IMG/VR virus record: IMGVR_UViG_3300045988_024527
Location: 1 to 64,000 of that record
Length of the DNA: 64,000 bases
From: a virus
Taxonomy: Duplodnaviria > Heunggongvirae > Uroviricota > Caudoviricetes
Strand: one strand, 5' to 3'
Shown here: one piece after another, positions 45,024-55,712 of the stretch
How positions within the stretch are numbered: the first letter of the stretch is position 1
How the letters are laid out: each line of letters begins with the position of its first letter
Position numbers and translations under genes: made by a program
The notes under the pieces: model-generated
Told to the model about the DNA's origin: nothing
What the model saw: the letters and a program-made list of their open reading frames with translations, nothing else
The model's database searches: none

Positions 45024-46070
45024 ATGGAGAAGTACACATTAACAAAACTTCCCGATTCAGTTACACATGTCTTTATTGACTCTGACAGTATTGCCTATAA
45101 AGGTGCTTGTGTAGTTGAGAAAGCAAAATATAAATACGTCAATAAACTCACAGCAGAAGAATCTGAGCCATTTGATAATGCGAAAGATGCTGCAAGATGG
45201 TTAGCAGACCAGAGAATCCTTGTGGAAGAGCTTGGCCTGACATTTGATGAAGATGAATGGGAAAGACAGACTTGGAAAGAAGCGAAGAGTGAAAAAGAAG
45301 CTATCATGGCTACTCAACAGGTGCTTCAGGAATGGCTTAAGGTTGTTGGTAAAGAGAGAACTTGGGTAGGTTACTTAACAGAGAAAGGTGTGCATAAACA
45401 CAAAGACATTAAAGGTCTTGAGCACCAATATCAAGGTAACCGCAAAGATGCTGTCACACCAACACACTTAGTTGCTTGTCGTGAGTATCTTCTGTCAAGA
45501 CCAGAGTTCAAATTAATTCTTGATGGATTTGAAGCTGACTCTATCGTTATTGCTAAAGCTGAAAAGATGGGAAAAAAGGCTGCCTTAATGAGTATTGATA
45601 AAGACCTTCGCCAAGCTGAAGGGACTTACTGTATTGATATGACCTATGAAAAGTCGCCTTTGATTTTCATTGCTGATAACAATGTTGGTGAAATTTGGGA
45701 TTGTCCAATAAAATCGACACCAAAAGCTAAGAAGACAGTTGGGGTAGGTTTTAAATTTCTTTGTTACCAAGCTGTGGCTGGTGATAATGCGGATAATTAT
45801 TTTGGTTTAAAGGGTGTTGGTAAGGTTACTATAATGAAAGCCCTTGAAGGTAAAACCACCTACAAAGAGTGTCTTGATGCAATTTATGAACTTTATGCTA
45901 AGAAAGAGTCATACACTTATGTCTCGTGGGATGGTCAAACAATTACCAGAACACCTTTAGAGTTAATGCAGCAACACTTTTTCTTAGCTTATCAGGAAAG
46001 AAACAAGAAAGATGATTTCACTTTTGATAAGTATGGATGGACACCAAATGTTAACCCAACAAACTCTTAA
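45024..46070 (+). CDS. 5'-3' exonuclease / flap endonuclease (RNase H-like)
   Basis: Acidic motifs DSDSIAYKG, DGFEADSIV, DKDLRQ and H3TH-like AVAGDNADNYFGLKGVGKVT. Confidence 0.7.
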   Translation: MEKYTLTKLPDSVTHVFIDSDSIAYKGACVVEKAKYKYVNKLTAEESEPFDNAKDAARWLADQRILVEELGLTFDEDEWERQTWKEAKSEKEAIMATQQVLQEWLKVVGKERTWVGYLTEKGVHKHKDIKGLEHQYQGNRKDAVTPTHLVACREYLLSRPEFKLILDGFEADSIVIAKAEKMGKKAALMSIDKDLRQAEGTYCIDMTYEKSPLIFIADNNVGEIWDCPIKSTPKAKKTVGVGFKFLCYQAVAGDNADNYFGLKGVGKVTIMKALEGKTTYKECLDAIYELYAKKESYTYVSWDGQTITRTPLELMQQHFFLAYQERNKKDDFTFDKYGWTPNVNPTNS

Positions 46071-46539
46071 AGAATACCTACACTATGACCCCGAAACAGG
46101 GGTCTTTACTTGGATTAAGAAGTCTGCTAGACACACAAAAATTGGCTCTGTTGCAGGTACAAACTTAAGAGGGTACACCAGAATTTATTTGTTTGGTAAG
46201 GGTTATTATGCACATACTCTAGCTGTTCTGTATATGGATGGATACCTACCTGAGTGTGTTGACCATAAAAATCATGTAACACTAGACAATCGATGGGTAA
46301 ACCTTAGGGCATGTACATTATCAGAGAACCAATGCAATAGGTTGCTCAATAAGAACAATAAATCAGGTGTTAAAGGTGTGTACTACAAAAAACAGTATGG
46401 TAAGTGGTCTACACAGATAACTTTTAAGAAGAAAGTTTACTTCTTCGGAAACTATGACACTATTGATGAAGCAGCAGAGGTTGTAAATAGGGAACGCCAA
46501 CGTTTACACAAAGAGTTTGCTAATAAAGGTGATGAATGA
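46036..46539 (+). CDS. HNH homing endonuclease with AP2-like domain
   Basis: LKEYLHYDPETGVFTW ... HTLAVLYMDGYLPECVDHKNHVTLDNRWVNLR ... SGVKGVYYKKQYGKWSTQITFKKKVYFFG; start uncertain (track 46012). Confidence 0.7.
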   Translation, partial: DGHQMLTQQTLKEYLHYDPETGVFTWIKKSARHTKIGSVAGTNLRGYTRIYLFGKGYYAHTLAVLYMDGYLPECVDHKNHVTLDNRWVNLRACTLSENQCNRLLNKNNKSGVKGVYYKKQYGKWSTQITFKKKVYFFGNYDTIDEAAEVVNRERQRLHKEFANKGDE

Positions 46540-47036
46540 GAAAAATAAAAGGTTTTGGCAATTGCCCTGAATATGGACATTGGGTTTCACTATGTGGTGA
46601 AGTTGACCCAGCAAAGCACTTTGGTTTTGTCTACCTAGTGTACTGCAAAAAGACTGGACAGTACTACTTGGGTAAAAAACAGCTTAATAGTGTGACCAAA
46701 AGAAAAGTTGCTGGTAAGACTCGGAAGAAGGTAGTCACTAAGGAAAGTGATTGGATGACTTACGAGACTTCTTCTGAGTATATCAAAAAAGATATTGAAA
46801 GCTTTGGAAAAGAATCTTTTGACTTTTATATTATTCAAACCTACTACACAAAAGGTGGCCTAGTTTATGGTGAAGCAAACCTTCAACATAAGTTCGATGT
46901 AATGACAAAAAGGATTGACTCGAAGCTCAGACTCTTCTACAATGCCAATATTGCAGCAATTAAGTTTATTACTAAAGAAACTTATGAAGATGCTGAAAAA
47001 AGAATCCATAAGGTAATGAAAGCAAATTGTGCTTGA
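46536..47036 (+). CDS. GIY-YIG-like endonuclease
   Basis: GFVYLVYCKKTGQYYLGKKQ resembles the GIY-(10-11)-YIG motif; directly downstream of HNH gene. Confidence 0.5.
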   Translation: MRKIKGFGNCPEYGHWVSLCGEVDPAKHFGFVYLVYCKKTGQYYLGKKQLNSVTKRKVAGKTRKKVVTKESDWMTYETSSEYIKKDIESFGKESFDFYIIQTYYTKGGLVYGEANLQHKFDVMTKRIDSKLRLFYNANIAAIKFITKETYEDAEKRIHKVMKANCA

Positions 47037-47042
47037 TAACTA

Positions 47043-47306
47043 TTGAGAGAGAATAAAATGTTTAACAAAAGTAAAGCTGTGAGCCATGTAGCAAAAGTTG
47101 ACAGCAAGATTGAAGAACTTGAGCGCATTCTTGCAAATGCTAAAGAGTCAATAATTAAAGAAGTTGAAGCTGTTGAATCTCAAATGCAGCACCTAATGCT
47201 TAAACGCCAAGAGCTACGTGAGCATCTAGAATATATTGAAACACGAGAGCTAAAAGTTAACAGATATTTTAAGGAGTCCGAATGTTTAACTCAAGAGAAT
47301 CAGTAA
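47043..47306 (+). CDS. hypothetical coiled-coil protein (87 aa)
   Basis: ORF track. Confidence 0.35.
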   Translation: MRENKMFNKSKAVSHVAKVDSKIEELERILANAKESIIKEVEAVESQMQHLMLKRQELREHLEYIETRELKVNRYFKESECLTQENQ

Positions 47307-48037
47307 AAAACTGGAACCTTCGTTGTGGAAACACTCAAAAACAACCTTACAGTAATGAGTATTGGGAATCTTTAAAATCTCAATCTCTGTGTATGCTTGA
47401 AGAAGCAAAAGAGCTTGTAAAAGCAATTGAAGAGAAAGACCCCATTGAGACACTGGATGCTCAGGCAGATTTGCAATATGTTCTTGACGGTTTGATTTAC
47501 CTGTCACAGCATGACCATAACGGTGCTATGAAAGCTGTTTGCCATAATAATGACCTGAAGTACACAGATAACTATGAAGAAGCTTTAAAACGTCTTGCAG
47601 ACATTGAAAAGCGTACTGGTCAAGAGTGTATTATCAGAATGTCAGTAGTTGATGGTAAAGAGTGGTATGCAATTGTTCGTGCAGCAGATGGGAAGATTAT
47701 GAAGCAATCGAATCTCCCTAAAGTACAGCTTGGTGAATACATTGTAGAACTTGAAAGCCAAGAACTTTTTGTGGTAGTATCTGAGACATGCGTTATCTGC
47801 AAAGGTCTTGTAGGTAGCTTAAAGGATTTGGGTGTAGATGGTTTTGTAGAAGTTAATCCAATTACCTCTAAAGCAGATAAAGACTTCTGTAAAGAGAATG
47901 GACTATGGATTGCAGATATTGTCTACTATGATGGTGAGCAGTTCCATGTAACCTCATACCCGAAACTGAATTATGATGCTAATAACCTGAAGTGCTGGTT
48001 AAAAGGGGTTGGTTATAATGGATTCACAGAACATTAA
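47282..48037 (+). CDS. MazG-like NTP pyrophosphohydrolase domain fused to unknown C-terminal domain
   Basis: N-terminal LEEAKELVKAIEEKDPIETLDAQADLQYVLDGLIY fits the all-alpha EExxE...D pattern; about 150 aa C-terminal region unrecognised. Confidence 0.4.
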   Translation: MFNSRESVKNWNLRCGNTQKQPYSNEYWESLKSQSLCMLEEAKELVKAIEEKDPIETLDAQADLQYVLDGLIYLSQHDHNGAMKAVCHNNDLKYTDNYEEALKRLADIEKRTGQECIIRMSVVDGKEWYAIVRAADGKIMKQSNLPKVQLGEYIVELESQELFVVVSETCVICKGLVGSLKDLGVDGFVEVNPITSKADKDFCKENGLWIADIVYYDGEQFHVTSYPKLNYDANNLKCWLKGVGYNGFTEH

Positions 48038-48341
48038 TAAAGAGGGTGTGGCTCAGAAGAGCCACTTCTCAAACTACAATATTTCTATGACGGTGTTTAT
48101 GAATGACCCGTTACTTGAAAAGTATGGTGAGACTCCAGATACACTTCTGGACAATGAACAAGTTTTAAAAGCAGTCCTGTACAAATACGGGATTGATATT
48201 GAGAAAGAATATTCTTTTGAAATCTGCCAACACAGAAATACTTTCGGTAAAGTCGTGATGGCTCCCCTCTTTATGGGTGTAGAAAGAACTGACGATGGTT
48301 GGTGGTATCTAAAAAGAAACTTGGAGAAATACCGTGTCTAA
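48009..48341 (+). CDS. hypothetical protein (110 aa)
   Basis: ORF track. Confidence 0.4.
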   Translation: MVIMDSQNINKEGVAQKSHFSNYNISMTVFMNDPLLEKYGETPDTLLDNEQVLKAVLYKYGIDIEKEYSFEICQHRNTFGKVVMAPLFMGVERTDDGWWYLKRNLEKYRV

Positions 48342-48718: not shown

Positions 48719-50953
48719 ATGATTAAGACAATTAAAAAATCAAATGGTACAGTAGTAAACTTTGACCCAGAAAGACTGAATAAGTGGGCATCATGGGCAG
48801 ATAAGCGTGGAATTATCTGGTCAGAAGTCACTATGGAAGCTATGAAACGTGTCTATGAGGGTTGCACTACAAAAGAGATGCACCAAGCCATGATTGATGT
48901 TTGTGTTGATAAACAAACTCAAGAGTACTCAGATATGGCTGGGCGGCTACTTCTGGGGATTATCTACAAAGAAGCCTTTGGAGGCTTTACTAAGGTTCCT
49001 ACGCTGGTTACCTTCGTTAAAAACATGGAGAGAGCAGGACTTTGGGAGAAGATGGATTATTCACAGGAAGAGCTTGAATACCTGCAAGGTTACATCGTAC
49101 ACTCAAAAGATATCTCTTACGGTTATGCAGTCTTGAAACAGTTCAGAGACAAGTATGGTATCCGTGATATTAAAACGGGAAGACTGTTTGAGTCACCACA
49201 ATTTATGTTTATGGGTATGGCTATGAAAGCCTTTGAGAAGCAACCAAAGCACCGTAGACTGCAAGATGTTATCAAGCTGTACACTTACCTATCTGACCTG
49301 AAGATTAACGCTCCTACACCTTATTTAAACGGTTTAAGAGCAACTAAATCAGGCTATGCGTCATGCTGTTTGATTAAGGCAAATGACACTGCCGAATCTC
49401 TCGGTATTGCTGCAAAGGTTGCTTATGATATGACCACAAAGCAAGCTGGTATTGGTATGCTGATGGAGACACGTACTATTGGTGATGGTATCCGTCAAAA
49501 TACGATTGAGCACATGGGTAAGCTACCTTATTACAAGCTTGTACGTTCATCTGTAGAGGCAAACAAACAGAAGAGTCGTGGTGGTTCAGCTAATAACTTC
49601 TACACTGCTCTAGACCCGCAGATTGAAGATTTACTGCGTTTGAAGCACCCTACAACGGTTCCTTCTAAACGTATTAATGAGATGGACTACTCATTCGGCA
49701 CAAACGATTATTTCTGGCAGTGTGTTCAGTATGATACAGATTGGTTGCTATTCTCTTACAAAGATGCACCAAAACTCTATGACATGTTCTACACAGCATC
49801 TGCTGATGAGTTTGCTATGGCAGTTGGTCACGCAGTACATTCAGGAGTTAAGCACAGACGAGTCAAGGCTCGTGAAATTGCTAAGCTGTTTATTCAACAG
49901 CGTTATGCTACAGGTCGTGTGTATCCATTCTTCACTAACAATGCAAACACACATACACCATTTAAAGAACCATTGAAGATGTCAAATCTTTGTATGGAAA
50001 TTGTGTTGCCAGTGTATGGTTTTGAGAAAGAGACAGACCTTTACAGAGATGATGCTGTGAAAGAGGATGGTGAGGTGGCTCTTTGCTTCCTAGCTAGTTT
50101 GGTTGCAGGGAGAATTTCAGAAGATGAATACGCTGACGTTGCTTATTATGCTCTTGCAATGGTTGACTCCGTTATTGACCTTATGGATTATCCGTATCCG
50201 TCGATGCGTAACCATGTTCAGAAGCGTCGTTCTGTTGGGATTGGCCTTACAAATGTGGCTCATTACCTTGCGAAGAACTACGTGAACTACTCTTCACGAG
50301 CAGGTAAAACGAAACTTCATGAACTTGCAGAGATGCACTCTTACTATCTGCATGAAGCCTCTCTGAGACTTGCTAAAGAGCGTGGCGTTCCAGAGTACAT
50401 GAAGTTCACTAAGTATCCTGAAGGCTGGGTTCCTCCAAAGACAGCTAACAAGAAGATTGATGAAAAGCATGATGCAAAACTACGATATGATTGGGATGAC
50501 TTAGCACAACGTATCAAAGAAAATGGTGGAATCCGAAACTCTGTATTAGAAGCTTACATGCCTAATGAGAGTTCTTCACTAGCAACTAATACGACAAATG
50601 GCTTGTACCCAATTCGTGACTTTATTTTAACTAAAAAATCTGCAACTGGTAACGTACTGTTTATTGTTCCAGATTATGAAGAGTTGAAGTATGTCTATGA
50701 GATTGCTTGGGATATTGACACCTTTGATATGATTGATTGTTATGCAATTGTTCAAAAGTTCACTGGTCAAGCTATCTCTTCAGACTTCTATGTTGACTAT
50801 GCAAAGTCTAAGAAGGTATCATTGGCTCAAGCTTTGAAGTACATGATTTATGCCAACTTGGTAGGTATGAAAACCATGTACTACCTTAACAGTCGCATTG
50901 GTGTAGGTAAATCTGCACTGCAAGATGCTTATTGCGAGGGTTGTGGTGTTTAG
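48719..50953 (+). CDS. nrdA: ribonucleotide reductase class I large subunit
   Basis: 744 aa; N-terminal ATP-cone-like KKSNGTVVNFDPERLNKW; active-site region PFKEPLKMSNLCMEIVLP; C-terminal CEGCGV. Confidence 0.85.
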   Translation: MIKTIKKSNGTVVNFDPERLNKWASWADKRGIIWSEVTMEAMKRVYEGCTTKEMHQAMIDVCVDKQTQEYSDMAGRLLLGIIYKEAFGGFTKVPTLVTFVKNMERAGLWEKMDYSQEELEYLQGYIVHSKDISYGYAVLKQFRDKYGIRDIKTGRLFESPQFMFMGMAMKAFEKQPKHRRLQDVIKLYTYLSDLKINAPTPYLNGLRATKSGYASCCLIKANDTAESLGIAAKVAYDMTTKQAGIGMLMETRTIGDGIRQNTIEHMGKLPYYKLVRSSVEANKQKSRGGSANNFYTALDPQIEDLLRLKHPTTVPSKRINEMDYSFGTNDYFWQCVQYDTDWLLFSYKDAPKLYDMFYTASADEFAMAVGHAVHSGVKHRRVKAREIAKLFIQQRYATGRVYPFFTNNANTHTPFKEPLKMSNLCMEIVLPVYGFEKETDLYRDDAVKEDGEVALCFLASLVAGRISEDEYADVAYYALAMVDSVIDLMDYPYPSMRNHVQKRRSVGIGLTNVAHYLAKNYVNYSSRAGKTKLHELAEMHSYYLHEASLRLAKERGVPEYMKFTKYPEGWVPPKTANKKIDEKHDAKLRYDWDDLAQRIKENGGIRNSVLEAYMPNESSSLATNTTNGLYPIRDFILTKKSATGNVLFIVPDYEELKYVYEIAWDIDTFDMIDCYAIVQKFTGQAISSDFYVDYAKSKKVSLAQALKYMIYANLVGMKTMYYLNSRIGVGKSALQDAYCEGCGV

Positions 50954-51008
50954 TTTTAACAACTATGAGGGTCGTAAAAGACCCTCTAAAAATAACTTTG
51001 GAGAGACC

Positions 51009-51266
51009 ATGAAAGATTTAATAGAAAAACATGAGCGACCTATATACTTGCTCCACAAGCCTCGGAAAACGATGTACTATGTGAGTAGCACAGACATGAT
51101 GATAAAACAAAATGATGACTCATGGGTTGCTGGTATCTCTTACATCTCTATAGCAGATGGTAAAATCTACGCAAGACCTTATGAGATGTTTAACAAAGAG
51201 AATTGGGAAGTTTTAGACAGAAAACAAGCCTTAGAAATGATAAAGAAAGGAGAAATCACGCTATGA
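51009..51266 (+). CDS. hypothetical protein between nrdA and nrdB
   Basis: ORF-track frame 50925-51266; start moved to ATG 51009 with ggagag SD; stop overlaps nrdB ATG. Confidence 0.35.
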   Translation: MKDLIEKHERPIYLLHKPRKTMYYVSSTDMMIKQNDDSWVAGISYISIADGKIYARPYEMFNKENWEVLDRKQALEMIKKGEITL

Positions 51267-52336
51267 TTAACCAGCACCCAATCTTTTTAGGTGGTGAGAG
51301 AAAAACTTTTGACTCACTTAATAAGCACTACCCAAAAATCTTCGAACTTTATAAACAACAAAAAGCACAAGACTGGTCAGAAGATGAGTTCCCTTTTGAA
51401 CAATCACGTCTTGATTTTGAGAGTGTCCCAGCATCAATGTCAGGGGTAATGCTTGAGATTCTTAAGTGGCAGTGGGAAGCAGATACTCAAGTCGCTAAAA
51501 GTTTAGCGTTTGCCTTTGCACCATTCATCTCCGATGACATCTATGCGACTGCAATTATGAAGCAGTCTGAGATTGAAAACCTACATGCTCTTACTTACTC
51601 AGAGATTGTAAGGCAATGTATTAAAAACCCTGAAACAATCTTAGATGAGATTAACCAGAATGTTGCTGTACAAGACCGATTAAAAACTGTGAATCGTGTT
51701 CTTGAAGAATTACTGGATGAAGGTATAAACTATCGTCTGAGTTATGTGCGTGACTCACTTCTGGACAAAGACCCTTTACACTTCCATAAAGTGATTCTAA
51801 AAGGTCTATTTGCAGTGACTGCACTTGAAGGTATTTCTTTTATGGCATCTTTTGCATGTACTTTTGCACTTGATGCTCAAGATAAATTTCAAGGTATTGC
51901 TCAAGCTGTACAGAAAATTATGCTTGACGAAATCCTTCACACTAAAATTGATATTGAAGTTTTAAAAGAAACTTTAAGAGATGATGAGTGGCAAAAAGCT
52001 TTCCAACAAATTCTTCCAGAGATTAAAGTAATCTTAGATGAAGTAGTTGAAAGTGAAGAGAAATGGTCGTATTATATCTTCTCCGAAGGACGTGCTGTAG
52101 TTGGGTTAAATACAAAGCTTCTTCATGAGTGGGTTTACTATAATGCTGCCCCACTGTATGATATGTTTGGCATTCCCAGAGATTTTGTAGCTCCTAAAGA
52201 ACCACCTTTGAAGTATATGATTAAGAAGATGGAAATTGATAAAGAGCAGAATGCTAATCAGGAGCAACAGAACGGTGCGTATTTATTGAATACTGTTGTA
52301 GATGATTTGAATAGTGGATTTTTAGAGGTTCCTTAA
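51263..52336 (+). CDS. nrdB: ribonucleotide reductase class I small subunit
   Basis: Start at ATG 51263 (aaggag SD); ferritin-like helices with E/H ligands (SEIVRQC, MLDEILH); follows nrdA. Confidence 0.75.
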   Translation: MINQHPIFLGGERKTFDSLNKHYPKIFELYKQQKAQDWSEDEFPFEQSRLDFESVPASMSGVMLEILKWQWEADTQVAKSLAFAFAPFISDDIYATAIMKQSEIENLHALTYSEIVRQCIKNPETILDEINQNVAVQDRLKTVNRVLEELLDEGINYRLSYVRDSLLDKDPLHFHKVILKGLFAVTALEGISFMASFACTFALDAQDKFQGIAQAVQKIMLDEILHTKIDIEVLKETLRDDEWQKAFQQILPEIKVILDEVVESEEKWSYYIFSEGRAVVGLNTKLLHEWVYYNAAPLYDMFGIPRDFVAPKEPPLKYMIKKMEIDKEQNANQEQQNGAYLLNTVVDDLNSGFLEVP

Positions 52337-52578
52337 TGACTTATGTAATTTACTCCAAAACTGGATGCCCTCAGTGTGAGACTGCAAAGAATTTTGCGAA
52401 AGCTCGTGGTATTGACCATGTTGTGAGAATGTTAGGGCAGGATTATGAACTGCCAGACCTGATGGATATTGCACAGATGCCAGTTCGTCAGATGCCATTC
52501 ATCATGAAAACTGACGGTCAAAACCTAAAACCTGTTGGAACGCTACAGAATTTTATGGCAGAGGTGAATAATGCTTAA
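52336..52578 (+). CDS. nrdH: glutaredoxin-like protein (NrdH-type)
   Basis: 80 aa, N-terminal YVIYSKTGCPQCETAKNF (CxxC redox motif), coupled to nrdB. Confidence 0.6.
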   Translation: MTYVIYSKTGCPQCETAKNFAKARGIDHVVRMLGQDYELPDLMDIAQMPVRQMPFIMKTDGQNLKPVGTLQNFMAEVNNA

Positions 52579-52825: not shown

Positions 52826-54022
52826 ATGAACAAAGTACAGATTATTAAAAAGAATGGCTCACTTGAAGAACCTGATATCAAAAAAGTTTTAGCAGCAGTA
52901 ACTAAGTCAGCTAACAGAGTTGGATATAAAGAACTCCCACCAGATGTTACCCAAGCTCTTGAGTCAGCATTTATGAGGATTCTGGTAAAGTCCACTAAGC
53001 AGAATAATTTACTCATCTCAGTCAATGATATCCACAGCATTGTTGAGGGTGCTTTGGCAGAAGTCAATCACGAGATTTATGAGTCTTACTCAACATATAG
53101 AAATTACCGGAAAGAGGTTGCTCAAAATTGGGATGAGCTTTACCAAAAGACTAGAGACACGCTCTTCTTAGGTGACCGTGAAAACGCTAACTTTGACAGC
53201 AGTTTAATTTCTACAAAAGGTTCAATTATTCGTGGTTATCTGACTAAAGAAATCTTTAAACAGTACCATTTAACACCAGAGGAACTTGAAGCCATTGAAA
53301 AAGGGTTTATCTATATCCATGATTTAAGAGACCTAATTTTTGGTGGTATCAACTGTTGCCTGTTTGACATTGGTAAAGTACTGAAAGGTGGCTTTGAAAT
53401 GTCTGGCATCGAATACTGTGAACCGAAGTCTGTGCTGTCAGCCTTACAGGTTATTGGTGATGTAGTTCTTTCAGCAACTGCACAGCAATTTGGTGGCTTT
53501 ACTTTAGCAGAGATTGATAAGGTACTTGTACCGTATGCTAAGAAGTCTCTACGCTATCATGCTGAGAAAGCAGCATCTTACGGTATTCCTAAAGAACATT
53601 ACCACAATTATGTCATGGAGCAGCTACAGATTGAACTGACTCAAGGTTTCCAGTCACTTGAAATGAAACTAAACACTGTACCTTGTAGTCGTGGGGATTT
53701 TGCATTTACAACTTTGACATTTGGGTTACTTGACTCAGATATGTCTAATGAAGATAATCGACTGCAATACATGATTGCAAGTACTCTCCTAGATGTTCGT
53801 ATGAATGGACAAGGTAAGAGCAAGAAGCCTGTTGTATTCCCTAAACTGGTTTATATTTATGACCAGAAGAGACACGATGAGAATATCTGTCAAGGACACC
53901 TGTACAGTAAAGCCATTGAGTGTTGCTCTAAAGCGATGTATCCAGATTTCTTAAGTGTATCTGGTCATGGTGCTGTAGCAGAGGCTTTTGAGCGTTCTGG
54001 TAAGGTTATTTCACCGATGGGT
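52826..54022 (+). CDS. nrdD: anaerobic ribonucleotide reductase, exon 1
   Basis: 399 codons ending ...ERSGKVISPMG; reading frame hits stop 3 nt into the proposed intron. Confidence 0.8.
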
Positions 54023-54764
54023 TAACAGGCTCTATAGCTCATCTAAAACGTGCCTAAACAGGGAAACTCTACAGATGTAGACAATCCTGTGCTAAATGAT
54101 GTACGATGTAAGAAACTATACAACATAGGAGTCTTACATGCCAAACTATCACGTCACTGAAGATGGAAAAGTCTTTAGGGAAAATGGTGTAGAACTTACG
54201 CAGTGGAAATCCAACACTGGGTATATGAAAGTGAGGTTTTACGGTAAGAAGAATCGTGACATGTATGTCCACAGGTTAGTTGCTGAGAAATATGTACCTA
54301 ACCCGAATAATCTTCCAATTGTAAAACATAAGGACGATAACAAACTAAATAACCACGCATCTAACTTAGAATGGGGTACTCATTCTGAGAATGCTAAAGA
54401 GGGTTATGAGAACGGATGTTACAAGTTCCACAAGCGTTCATATGCCGTGAAAGCCACACACAAAGTGACAAAGGAAGTTATTGTTGCTAAGTCAATACGA
54501 GAGTTATCCAATATACTTGGACACAATCGCAAGACCATCTCTTCAATATTGAAGGGTGTAAAAGAGCATAATAACTTCGAATATGAGTTTGAATACATCT
54601 AAATGCCGAACGACTAACCGTGATGAATGTAGCGGTGTAGGGTCAAGCGACTCGAAATGGTACGCTACTTAGAAATAAGTAGAAGATATAGTCTGGACTT
54701 ACTGGCGACAGTAAGCAGCTTGAATAAAGCGGGGTAAGCTTAGCGAACTTACCTGAACAACAAG
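54023..54764 (+). other. group I self-splicing intron interrupting nrdD
   Basis: Exon 1 ends in U (54022) and intron ends in G (54764); exon tail gatgggu can pair intron gcucauc (54037-54043) with U-G at the splice site; joining gives ...SPMG|CRAFLSPYLNDNGEEFYVGRANIG...; intron carries an HNH ORF. Confidence 0.65.
54138..54602 (+). CDS. intron-encoded HNH homing endonuclease
   Basis: VHRLVAEKYVPNPNNLPIVKHKDDNKLNNHASNLEWGTHSENAK is an HNH_3-type motif; located inside the nrdD intron. Confidence 0.8.
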   Translation: MPNYHVTEDGKVFRENGVELTQWKSNTGYMKVRFYGKKNRDMYVHRLVAEKYVPNPNNLPIVKHKDDNKLNNHASNLEWGTHSENAKEGYENGCYKFHKRSYAVKATHKVTKEVIVAKSIRELSNILGHNRKTISSILKGVKEHNNFEYEFEYI

Positions 54765-55712
54765 TGTAGAGCGTTTTTATCACCATATCTTAACGATAAT
54801 GGGGAAGAGTTCTATGTAGGTCGTGCTAACATTGGTGCTGTGTCTTTGAACTTACCAATGATTTACCAGTATTCTAAAGAGAATGGTTTAGATTTCTGGA
54901 AAGAGCTTGATAAGTACCTAGAGATGATTCGTAGTTTCCACAAGAAACGCTATGAAATGATTGCCAATATGCCAGCAAGTTCTAACCCTCTTGCATTTAC
55001 ACAAGGTGGTCTGTACAAAGGAACTAAGAAGCCTACTGACAAGGTTGGTTGGGATATTGTGAAGTCCTTCACAGCTTCTTTTGGGGTTACTGCGCTTGAT
55101 GAGCTATCTGTTCTTGCTGAAGGTAAACGACTTCATGAAGTTGGAAGCTATAGTTTTGCATATGATGTTCTGGCATACATCAATATGAAAACTGAAGAGT
55201 TTAAGAACGAAGATGGCTTCTTGTATGCGGTATATGGCACTCCAGCAGAATCACTTTGTGGAACTCAGTTAAAACAGTTCAGAGATATGTTTGGCGTTAT
55301 TAAAGGTGTCTCTGACAAGGAATACTTTACAAACAGTTTCCATATGAATGTTGCAGCAGACATCTCACCATTTGAGAAGCAGGACTTAGAAGAGCCATTC
55401 TTCCATATCTGTAGAGGTGGTAGAATCCAGTATGTAAGGGTAGCTAACCCAGAAAACTTACCAGCACTTAAAAGTTGTATTACAAGAGGGATGTTGAAGG
55501 GTTTTTATCAGGGACTTAACTTTGACTTAGCAATCTGTGAACATTGTGGTAACAGACCAAAAGCTGATGTTGAAGAATGTGAGGTTTGTCATTCACATGA
55601 TATCTCTGTGATTAACAGGGTGTGCGGATACTTATCATTCACAAAAATTAAAGGCCAGTCTCGAATGAATGACGCTAAGATGGCAGAAATTAAGGATAGG
55701 ATTTCTATGTAA
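54765..55712 (+). CDS. nrdD: anaerobic ribonucleotide reductase, exon 2
   Basis: In-frame continuation with C-terminal cysteine cluster CEHCGNRPKADVEECEVCHSHD and glycyl-radical motif RVCGYLSF. Confidence 0.8.
   Translation, partial: CRAFLSPYLNDNGEEFYVGRANIGAVSLNLPMIYQYSKENGLDFWKELDKYLEMIRSFHKKRYEMIANMPASSNPLAFTQGGLYKGTKKPTDKVGWDIVKSFTASFGVTALDELSVLAEGKRLHEVGSYSFAYDVLAYINMKTEEFKNEDGFLYAVYGTPAESLCGTQLKQFRDMFGVIKGVSDKEYFTNSFHMNVAADISPFEKQDLEEPFFHICRGGRIQYVRVANPENLPALKSCITRGMLKGFYQGLNFDLAICEHCGNRPKADVEECEVCHSHDISVINRVCGYLSFTKIKGQSRMNDAKMAEIKDRISM

Follow-up and report, generated by a model that had tools for sequence, protein, structure and literature searches.

What a phage might do with a nucleotide pyrophosphohydrolase whose second half had no recognized relatives is the question raised by the gene at positions 47282..48037 of the window, as the whole analyzed stretch of 64,000 nucleotides (nt; positions 1 to 64,000 of IMG/VR virus record IMGVR_UViG_3300045988_024527) is called here. 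The original prediction, made from the DNA letters without database searches, had described this gene as a MazG-like domain fused to an unrecognized C-terminal domain. In the present analysis, the product of 251 amino acids (aa) was found to combine a pyrophosphatase domain of the MazG/HisE type with a thioredoxin-fold domain carrying a conserved CxxC motif. With moderate confidence, we read it as a two-domain (deoxy)nucleoside triphosphate ((d)NTP) pyrophosphatase belonging to the deoxynucleotide module of the phage and coupled to a dithiol/disulfide module, with a putative activity, substrate and redox role.

The gene and its N-terminal pyrophosphatase domain

The gene lies on the + strand, like its parts, the homing-endonuclease genes and the downstream genes described below, and an AAGGAG ribosome-binding site, read from the sequence at 47271..47276, precedes its ATG by 5 nt. 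It overlaps both of its neighbors, at its start the last part of the open reading frame (ORF) 47043..47306 upstream and at its end the first part of the gene that follows. Besides its presence in the ORF list, PHROG and BLAST matches were obtained for it: family phrog_2144 ("MazG-like pyrophosphatase") matches the 251-aa protein from end to end (E-value 9e-102), megablast identified the gene in 237 phage records, with more than 200 phage genomes at 95-99% nucleotide identity, and tblastn with the protein yielded 304 phage records at 37-99% protein identity, the lowest values (37-45%) belonging to Ounavirinae of Erwinia, Hafnia, Yersinia and Pectobacterium. Since the ORF recurs in more than 200 phage genomes and in distant Ounavirinae, and since its match to phrog_2144 is full-length, it is a real gene and not a chance reading frame. 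The region around it shares 95-99% nucleotide identity with over 200 phages of the Felix O1-like group (Felixounavirus, Ounavirinae), whose hosts are Escherichia, Salmonella, Shigella and Citrobacter, and the window, with a guanine-cytosine content of 39%, can be assigned to a Felixounavirus genome.

The EExxE...D signature named in the original prediction is indeed present in the N-terminal domain. The EExxE motif (E40, E41, E44; 47399..47413), which contains the presumed Mg2+ ligands, is conserved and aligns with the EECAE of the HisE structure 1yvw, and the second acidic motif, D59-x3-D63 (47456..47470), was likewise located by alignments including HisE. Pfam searches with the protein gave a match of aa 26-78 to PRA-PH, the HisE family of the MazG clan (26.3 bits vs a curated cut-off of 21.3), and the same model was matched by seven out of eight diverse orthologues (best E-value 5.7e-9), two of the eight matching the MazG model (8.3e-7). 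MazG-like families of PHROG match the protein as well. When a family profile built from 24 N-domain sequences was compared with the sequences of the PDB, HisE 1yvw was retrieved (E-value 3e-5) together with AF_0060, the MazG-related 2yxh, HisE 2a7w, DR2231 and E. coli MazG, the only listed matches from outside the superfamily being one ribosomal protein (E-value 0.2) and one ligase (E-value 1.8). An AlphaFold2 model of the domain consists of helices 25-50, 54-75, 79-91 and 98-112 and of strands 116-123 and 126-133, which form a beta-hairpin (116-133), and the acidic motifs sit on the consecutive helices 25-50 and 54-75. We regard the sequence-profile evidence as sufficient to place the N-terminal domain in the all-alpha nucleoside triphosphate (NTP) pyrophosphohydrolase (MazG/HisE) superfamily.

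While the assignment of the original prediction to this superfamily thus stands, the length of about 100 residues given there does not. An exhaustive hidden Markov model search of 1.84 billion representative proteins yielded 1095 homologues at E < 1e-3, and among the best 150 of these nearly all align to aa ~5-155 of the query, most being free-standing proteins of 155-170 aa. Since aa 80-155 are conserved in such free-standing proteins, the pyrophosphatase domain comprises about 155 residues (aa 1-155, 47282..47746), in which, according to the Pfam and PDB profile matches, the homologues and the model, the all-alpha core is followed by an extra helix and the beta-hairpin. Across 27 diverse members, E40, E44, D63, N90, K93, K138 and K141 are invariant, while E41, N89, D91 and R133 are conserved in at least 90%. 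Two of the conserved stretches are specific to the subfamily, namely N89-N90-D91-x-K93 (47546..47560; conserved in the 27 members) and R133-x2-D136-x-K138-x2-K141 at the end of the beta-hairpin (47678..47704). The second acidic motif has the form D59-x3-D63 in most members and K-E60-x2-D63, i.e., the canonical ExxD, in some. The NNDxK motif and the basic hairpin mark what can be regarded, at the level of sequence, as a distinct subfamily. All members of traceable source come from phage genomes or phage-like contigs, and two free-standing relatives viewed in their context lie in phage replication/nucleotide modules together with PolA, deoxynucleoside monophosphate (dNMP) kinase, dCMP deaminase, ligase, and ribonucleotide reductase (RNR) plus glutaredoxin (Grx).

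In comparison with known enzymes, the domain resembles HisE (PF01503), MazG (PF03819) and the MazG-like dUTPase of the DR2231 type in its profile matches and in its two acidic motifs, EExxE and a second one, which sit on long helices that follow one another; the single catalytic domain is shared with HisE and DR2231. It differs in the extra helix and beta-hairpin with the NNDxK and R-x2-D-x-K-x2-K motifs, in a second acidic motif that is mostly DxxxD instead of ExxD, in its fusion to a thioredoxin-fold domain and in the lack of a histidine-pathway context. E. coli MazG contains two tandem MazG domains in about 260 aa, whereas the phage protein has one matched stretch, aa 26-78, and a thioredoxin fold in its second half. 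The closest counterparts are the free-standing phage homologues of 155-170 aa (phrog_671/715-type 'nucleotide pyrophosphohydrolase'), which align over the same domain (aa ~5-155) with E-values down to 1e-30 to 1e-50, share the invariant residues, occur in the same kind of replication/nucleotide module and are often followed by a small EP1-like gene. Unlike the protein of the window they have no CxxC domain, although some bear a cysteine-free acidic extension of 70-90 aa.

The C-terminal thioredoxin-fold domain

The C-terminal part, described in the original prediction as about 150 unrecognized residues, proved to be a domain of about 90 residues (aa 159-245, 47756..48016), for which structure prediction clearly identifies a thioredoxin fold of the order beta-alpha-beta-alpha-beta-beta-alpha. 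In the full-length model, aa 161-242 form a strand-helix-strand-helix-strand-strand-helix arrangement with predicted local distance difference test (pLDDT) values of 85-93, and when modeled alone the domain reached a pLDDT of 86.8 and a predicted template modeling score of 0.78. Foldseek searches with the domain gave thioredoxins and small glutaredoxins as best matches, among them proteins of 75-78 residues (7c10, 1ttz/1xpv and 3zij) with template modeling scores on the target of 0.70-0.75. The CVICKG stretch noticed in the original prediction was found at residues 170-175, and its CxxC motif (C170-V-I-C173, 47789..47800) was placed by conservation and by the model at the N-terminus of helix alpha-1: right behind strand beta-1 (161-165), C170 lies just before this helix (171-182) and C173 within the helix's first turn. 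In the model, the two cysteines are thus found in the canonical active-site position of the thioredoxin fold.

At the level of sequence, the relationship is more distant. Weak matches were obtained only for the orthologue of an Erwinia phage, to Pfam Glutaredoxin (E-value 1.7e-5) and to NrdH, mycoredoxin and other models, with NrdH as its best NCBIfam match (E-values 2e-4 to 9e-4; 19.4 bits, below the cut-off of 85.75). A family profile of the C-domain gave marginal matches in the PDB to a putative thioredoxin, Grx3 and NrdH, and pairwise hhalign comparisons brought the CxxC in register with that of an 80-aa glutaredoxin-like protein encoded by the phage itself and of E. coli NrdH, at E-values of 2-5e-4. 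A CDD match of the orthologue to the thioredoxin fold is already mentioned in the GenBank record of Hafnia phage SPARTY. In size and shape, the domain is closest to NrdH-redoxin and small glutaredoxin-like proteins (7c10 cGrx1, 1xpv/1ttz XcR50, 3zij BC3987, 1r7h/4fiw NrdH), whereas it reaches the threshold of neither the Glutaredoxin (PF00462) nor the NrdH (TIGR02194) model. Glutaredoxins are marked by CPYC/TVP/GG and NrdH by CVQC and WSGFRP. Both the glutathione-binding motifs (CPYC/TVP/GG) and the NrdH motif (WSGFRP) are absent from the family alignment, which instead has conserved motifs of its own, S196-x-A198-D199 and W239-L240-K241.

At 33-39% identity, C170 and C173 are among only 11 invariant columns of the C-domain. 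The CxxC is still invariant between proteins of 37% identity and was found in 39 out of 39 collected loci, as CVIC, CRLC, CTLC, CTQC, CFIC, CEIC, CGLC or CSLC, and as CSMC in one further representative. C87 of the N-terminal domain (VCxNND) had been considered as a partner cysteine of the CxxC and was rejected: one fusion with the CxxC (P0035) has Phe at this position, and relatives without the CxxC keep the Cys (P0024, P0025, P0058, P0092, P0123).

The fusion occurs in Ounavirinae-like phages only. In a set of representatives that stands for 15 billion proteins, both domains and the CxxC are carried by only about seven clusters at 50% identity (P0001, P0019-P0023, P0035), and the two loci looked up, those of P0021 and P0035, share the Ounavirinae gene order, in which exonuclease, homing endonuclease and a small ORF precede the fusion gene, and small ORFs and then genes for RNR or for other steps of nucleotide metabolism follow it. 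P0024 (157 aa, E-value 4e-50), closely related to the N-domain, does not have the C-domain. Searches for a free-standing C-domain were negative in that tblastn against phages retrieved it within the fused gene only (303 records), and a profile search of 5.8 billion proteins gave a single separate match, of 88 aa. This match comes from a gene split into ORFs of 120 and 88 aa on a metagenomic contig (L051:2622-3267); since nrdA on the same contig is split too, the split is probably an assembly error caused by frameshifts and not a natural separation of the domains.

N-domain relatives of 220-250 aa from marine and other metagenomes bear a different C-terminal part, a cysteine-free, very acidic alpha/beta extension of 70-90 residues (L013:8001-8687, L014:7319-8005, P0026, P0027, P0033, P0036, P0039, P0044, P0045, P0048, P0050, P0058, P0059, P0070). 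Its apparent order of strands and helices resembles a thioredoxin fold minus the last helix. Homology of these extensions to the thioredoxin-fold domain was considered and rejected, since they aligned in register with MAFFT but without significance in hhalign (probability 0.2%).

Function of the two-domain protein

The gene keeps a constant position in the deoxynucleotide module of the phage. Its surroundings are those of DNA replication and deoxynucleotide synthesis, with the order dNMP kinase, primase/helicase, exonuclease, MazG-like gene, nrdA, nrdB, grx, nrdD. The ORFs and the annotation of a near-identical phage identify nrdA (48719..50953) as the gene for the large subunit of a class Ia RNR and nrdB (51263..52336) as that for the small subunit. 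The following ORF (52336..52578) encodes the 80-aa glutaredoxin-like protein mentioned above (CPQC; a proline in QMPFIM), which matches the NCBIfam models glutaredoxin and NrdH and the phrog_22 thioredoxin domain. The near-identical complete genome also encodes thymidylate synthase, dihydrofolate reductase, dNMP kinase, NrdG, phosphoribosyl pyrophosphate synthetase and nicotinamide phosphoribosyltransferase, while neither a dUTPase nor a dCMP/dCTP deaminase is annotated in it.

According to the reading we prefer, the N-domain, which looks catalytically complete, would bind Mg2+ via E40, E41, E44, D59 and D63 and cleave a (d)NTP to (d)NMP and pyrophosphate, and its likeliest task would be to keep the dNTP pool clean or balanced. 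Among possible substrates, dUTP, for example, is attractive, because ThyA is present without an annotated dUTPase; a dUTPase-like activity would then feed the thymidylate synthase of the phage. The C-domain would act as a dithiol/disulfide module that couples the pyrophosphatase to the thiol redox state, either by switching the enzyme according to redox conditions or by serving the RNR system as a partner for docking or electron transfer. It had been proposed that the fusion partner could confer a new specificity; nothing in the analysis suggests this, and the C-domain is not thought to set the nucleotide specificity, because the pyrophosphatase domain is widespread on its own, occurring alone in hundreds of phage lineages.

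Several observations weigh against this reading. The structure prediction suggested in the original prediction for each half was informative for the C-terminal one, whereas for the N-terminal half MazG structures were not listed in the fold searches and the model confidence was moderate, and a direct PDB sequence search with the 251-aa protein returned nothing related by sequence. The C-domain of the window protein matches no Pfam or NCBIfam model, and to this extent its description as unrecognized holds. Thioredoxin-fold oxidoreductases carry a cis-proline before strand beta-3, which is used in substrate binding. At the corresponding place, the loop G207-A211 (GLWIA, 47900..47914, located by alignment), a proline is absent from every aligned family member, and the prolines of the window protein are confined to residues 22, 54, 146, 193 and 227, so that the C-domain, missing the cis-proline, may not be a conventional oxidoreductase. 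A canonical glutaredoxin of 80 aa already adjoins nrdB in the window and is the more obvious candidate for the reductant of the phage reductase. Furthermore, a whole-genome tblastn search of Yersinia phage vB_YenM_P778 (L011, L012) revealed no homologue of NrdA, NrdB or the 80-aa Grx; yet this Ounavirinae-like phage retains the fusion (with CFIC), the EP1-like gene and nrdD/nrdG, and also has terC/terD-like genes. An obligatory link of the fusion to a phage class I RNR, which had been considered, is therefore weakened. Similarly, Pectobacterium phage Arno162 has only nrdD and no nrdAB within the 12 kb around the gene. As to the substrate, the sole basis of the dUTPase idea is that no dUTPase is annotated.

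These observations bear in part on what the C-domain does. It might be a working hydrogen donor for RNR, similar to NrdH or T4 glutaredoxin, in which case the fusion would tether a dNTP-sanitizing enzyme into a miniature dNTP-synthesis complex. That the gene precedes nrdA by about 700 nt in Felixounavirus, Kolesnikvirus and related contigs would fit, as would the NrdH model as best NCBIfam match of the Erwinia-phage orthologue and the CxxC variants CV[IQ]C and CTQC, which resemble the CVQC of NrdH and the CVYC of T4 NrdC. We nevertheless consider a donor function rather unlikely, given the stand-alone Grx after nrdB, the retention of the fusion in P778 without nrdAB or Grx and in Arno162 without nrdAB nearby, and the absence of both the cis-proline and a WSGFRP-type motif. 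The loss of the cis-proline in all members could also be taken to mean that the C-domain is no oxidoreductase at all and serves either as a non-catalytic thioredoxin-like scaffold for oligomerization or docking or as a metal or Fe-S site via its two cysteines; in proteins of the thioredoxin family, the active-site thiolates can bind a metal once the cis-proline is lost. The acidic extensions of the marine relatives, with their similar length and predicted strand/helix order, would agree with a scaffold, but their homology to the C-domain is not significant, and both cysteines, but not the two freely varying residues that separate them, are kept in all 39 loci and all representatives, as is typical of a functional dithiol. 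A scaffold or metal site therefore seems a rather unlikely explanation to us.

Other rivals concern the pyrophosphatase. Atd1, a MazG-like protein of Pectobacterium phage PcCB7V, hydrolyzes ppGpp and blunts a TIR-based defense (bioRxiv 10.1101/2022.06.09.495361), and in a search of the literature it was the only experimentally characterized functional precedent for a phage MazG-like enzyme. Both proteins are phage-encoded with a single MazG-like domain, whereas no redox domain is described for Atd1. By analogy, the fusion could be an enzyme for host takeover or counter-defense that depletes the alarmone (p)ppGpp, with its activity tuned by the redox domain. Host-shutoff functions are indeed near, as the overlapping downstream gene encodes a member of the EP1 family of RNA polymerase inhibitors, and a mazG-like gene was mutated in a coevolution experiment with a Felixounavirus (PMC13155118). 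However, the EP1 adjacency is read as a shared synteny of the module, the EP1 family being found next to ThyX and RNR in Pseudomonas phages, and the mutations from the coevolution experiment coincide with the Shine-Dalgarno sequence and start codon of that downstream gene, in the stretch that the two genes share. Moreover, the 303 tblastn matches name four Pectobacterium phages, none of them PcCB7V, so that Atd1 is probably no close relative, the family lies in replication/nucleotide modules rather than in anti-defense loci, and the PADLOC defense models gave no match. An alarmone hydrolase thus appears fairly improbable. Far less probable still is a genuine HisE, i.e., a phosphoribosyl-ATP pyrophosphohydrolase of histidine biosynthesis. 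HisE provides the best Pfam and PDB matches, and GenBank records use that name, but it reflects the closest profile within a broad superfamily; in the near-identical complete genome no other histidine-pathway gene is annotated, the context consists of DNA replication and RNR genes, and the extra motifs and the beta-hairpin are not covered in the profile alignment by the solved HisE chains of about 115 aa.

A bolder version of the preferred two-domain reading, which we regard as quite unlikely, is a redox-gated pyrophosphatase, in which the CxxC domain without cis-proline would sense either RNR turnover or the redox state of thiols in the infected cell and toggle the hydrolysis of dNTPs or alarmones, possibly via a metal or Fe-S center. 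If this were true, redox state and nucleotide pools would be directly linked in Felix O1-like phages, and the MazG superfamily would gain, in the control of nucleotide hydrolysis by a redox domain, a form of regulation that has so far not been described for it. Should the C-domain merely dock the enzyme, the protein would be an ordinary house-cleaning enzyme with an accessory domain. The fusion hints at a link between the control of nucleotide pools and the thiol redox state.

Both domain superfamilies, the label "MazG-like" in PHROGs and in many GenBank records, and the thioredoxin fold in one record were known before. What is new is the lineage-restricted fusion, in which a MazG/HisE-like subfamily, traced here to phages only, is joined to an atypical CxxC thioredoxin-fold domain without cis-proline; a literature search found neither a description of a fusion of MazG with a glutaredoxin or thioredoxin nor an experiment on this Felix O1-like gene. 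Felix O1-like phages, in all of which the gene is conserved, are widely used in typing, biocontrol and therapy directed at Salmonella and E. coli. The current annotations of the gene are inconsistent ("hypothetical", "HisE-like", "MazG-like", "histidine biosynthesis bifunctional protein") and are corrected by its description as a pyrophosphatase with a CxxC redox-type domain.

Neighboring genes and database records

The gene overlapping the 3′-end of the fusion gene (48018..48341) encodes a 107-aa protein of the EP1 family (phrog_4007), identified by a profile match to the PDB. The profile of this small-protein family matches chain G of 9w3d (E-value 6.6e-36) and chain G of 9w3e (PP1; 6e-14). 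EP1 binds to the beta' subunit's N-terminal helix as well as to the omega subunit in E. coli RNA polymerase, and it displaces region 4 of sigma70 (bioRxiv 10.64898/2025.12.17.695035). An EP1-like gene lies directly downstream of the MazG-like gene in 39 out of 39 loci, and in two unrelated metagenomic phages a free-standing N-domain gene is likewise followed by an EP1-like homologue. In Pseudomonas phages, the EP1/PP1-family gene comes after ThyX and before RNR. A functional two-gene module of NTP pyrophosphatase and EP1-like protein was considered and rejected, since this placement makes a synteny of the module the simpler explanation; the EP1-like gene is accordingly read as a conserved neighbor inherited with the module and not as part of the enzyme, and its adjacency does not prove a functional pair. 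GenBank names the EP1-like gene 'RLF transduction protein' or 'hypothetical'; the label 'thymidylate synthase' of the related phrog_3506 is wrong and was apparently given because the EP1 family adjoins ThyX in Pseudomonas phages.

The overlap of the two genes also bears on the mutations mentioned above. In the coevolution of Felixounavirus P10, the 'MazG-like' gene acquired the substitution G242V by a change from GGG to GTG, together with a duplication of 18 nt at nt 734/756 (PMC13155118). Mapped onto the window, these mutations lie at 48001..48035, where the two genes overlap and where the EP1-like gene has its Shine-Dalgarno sequence (AAAAGGGG) and its ATG, and they may act on the EP1-like gene and not on the pyrophosphatase.

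Upstream of the MazG-like gene, the window contains an ORF of 285 aa, a 5'-3' exonuclease (45024..46070), homing-endonuclease ORFs of the HNH (phrog_99; 46012..46539) and GIY-YIG/SegE-like (phrog_447; 46536..47036) types, and a small ORF. The label 'NAD synthetase' of phrog_447, which has spread into GenBank records, is probably a misannotation. Downstream, two small ORFs are located between the MazG-like gene and nrdA, and a small conserved ORF (phrog_2652; 50925..51266) lies between nrdA and nrdB and overlaps both. nrdD is present as two ORFs of 399 and 290 aa (52826..54025 and 54840..55712) with an HNH-endonuclease ORF (54138..54602) inserted between them, whereas in P778 and Arno162 the halves are contiguous and form one gene.

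The MazG-like gene is also contained in records named after phages of other hosts, namely Staphylococcus phage SA1, Campylobacter phage A132 and Listeria phage LPML1 (GenBank GU169904.1 and MG065664.1 and protein UCR92248.1). The enterobacterial Felixounavirus copy is matched at about 98-99% identity by those of SA1 and A132, and that of LPML1 falls into the more distant cluster of Hafnia phage Zyzzx, which suggests contamination or mis-assigned hosts in these three records.

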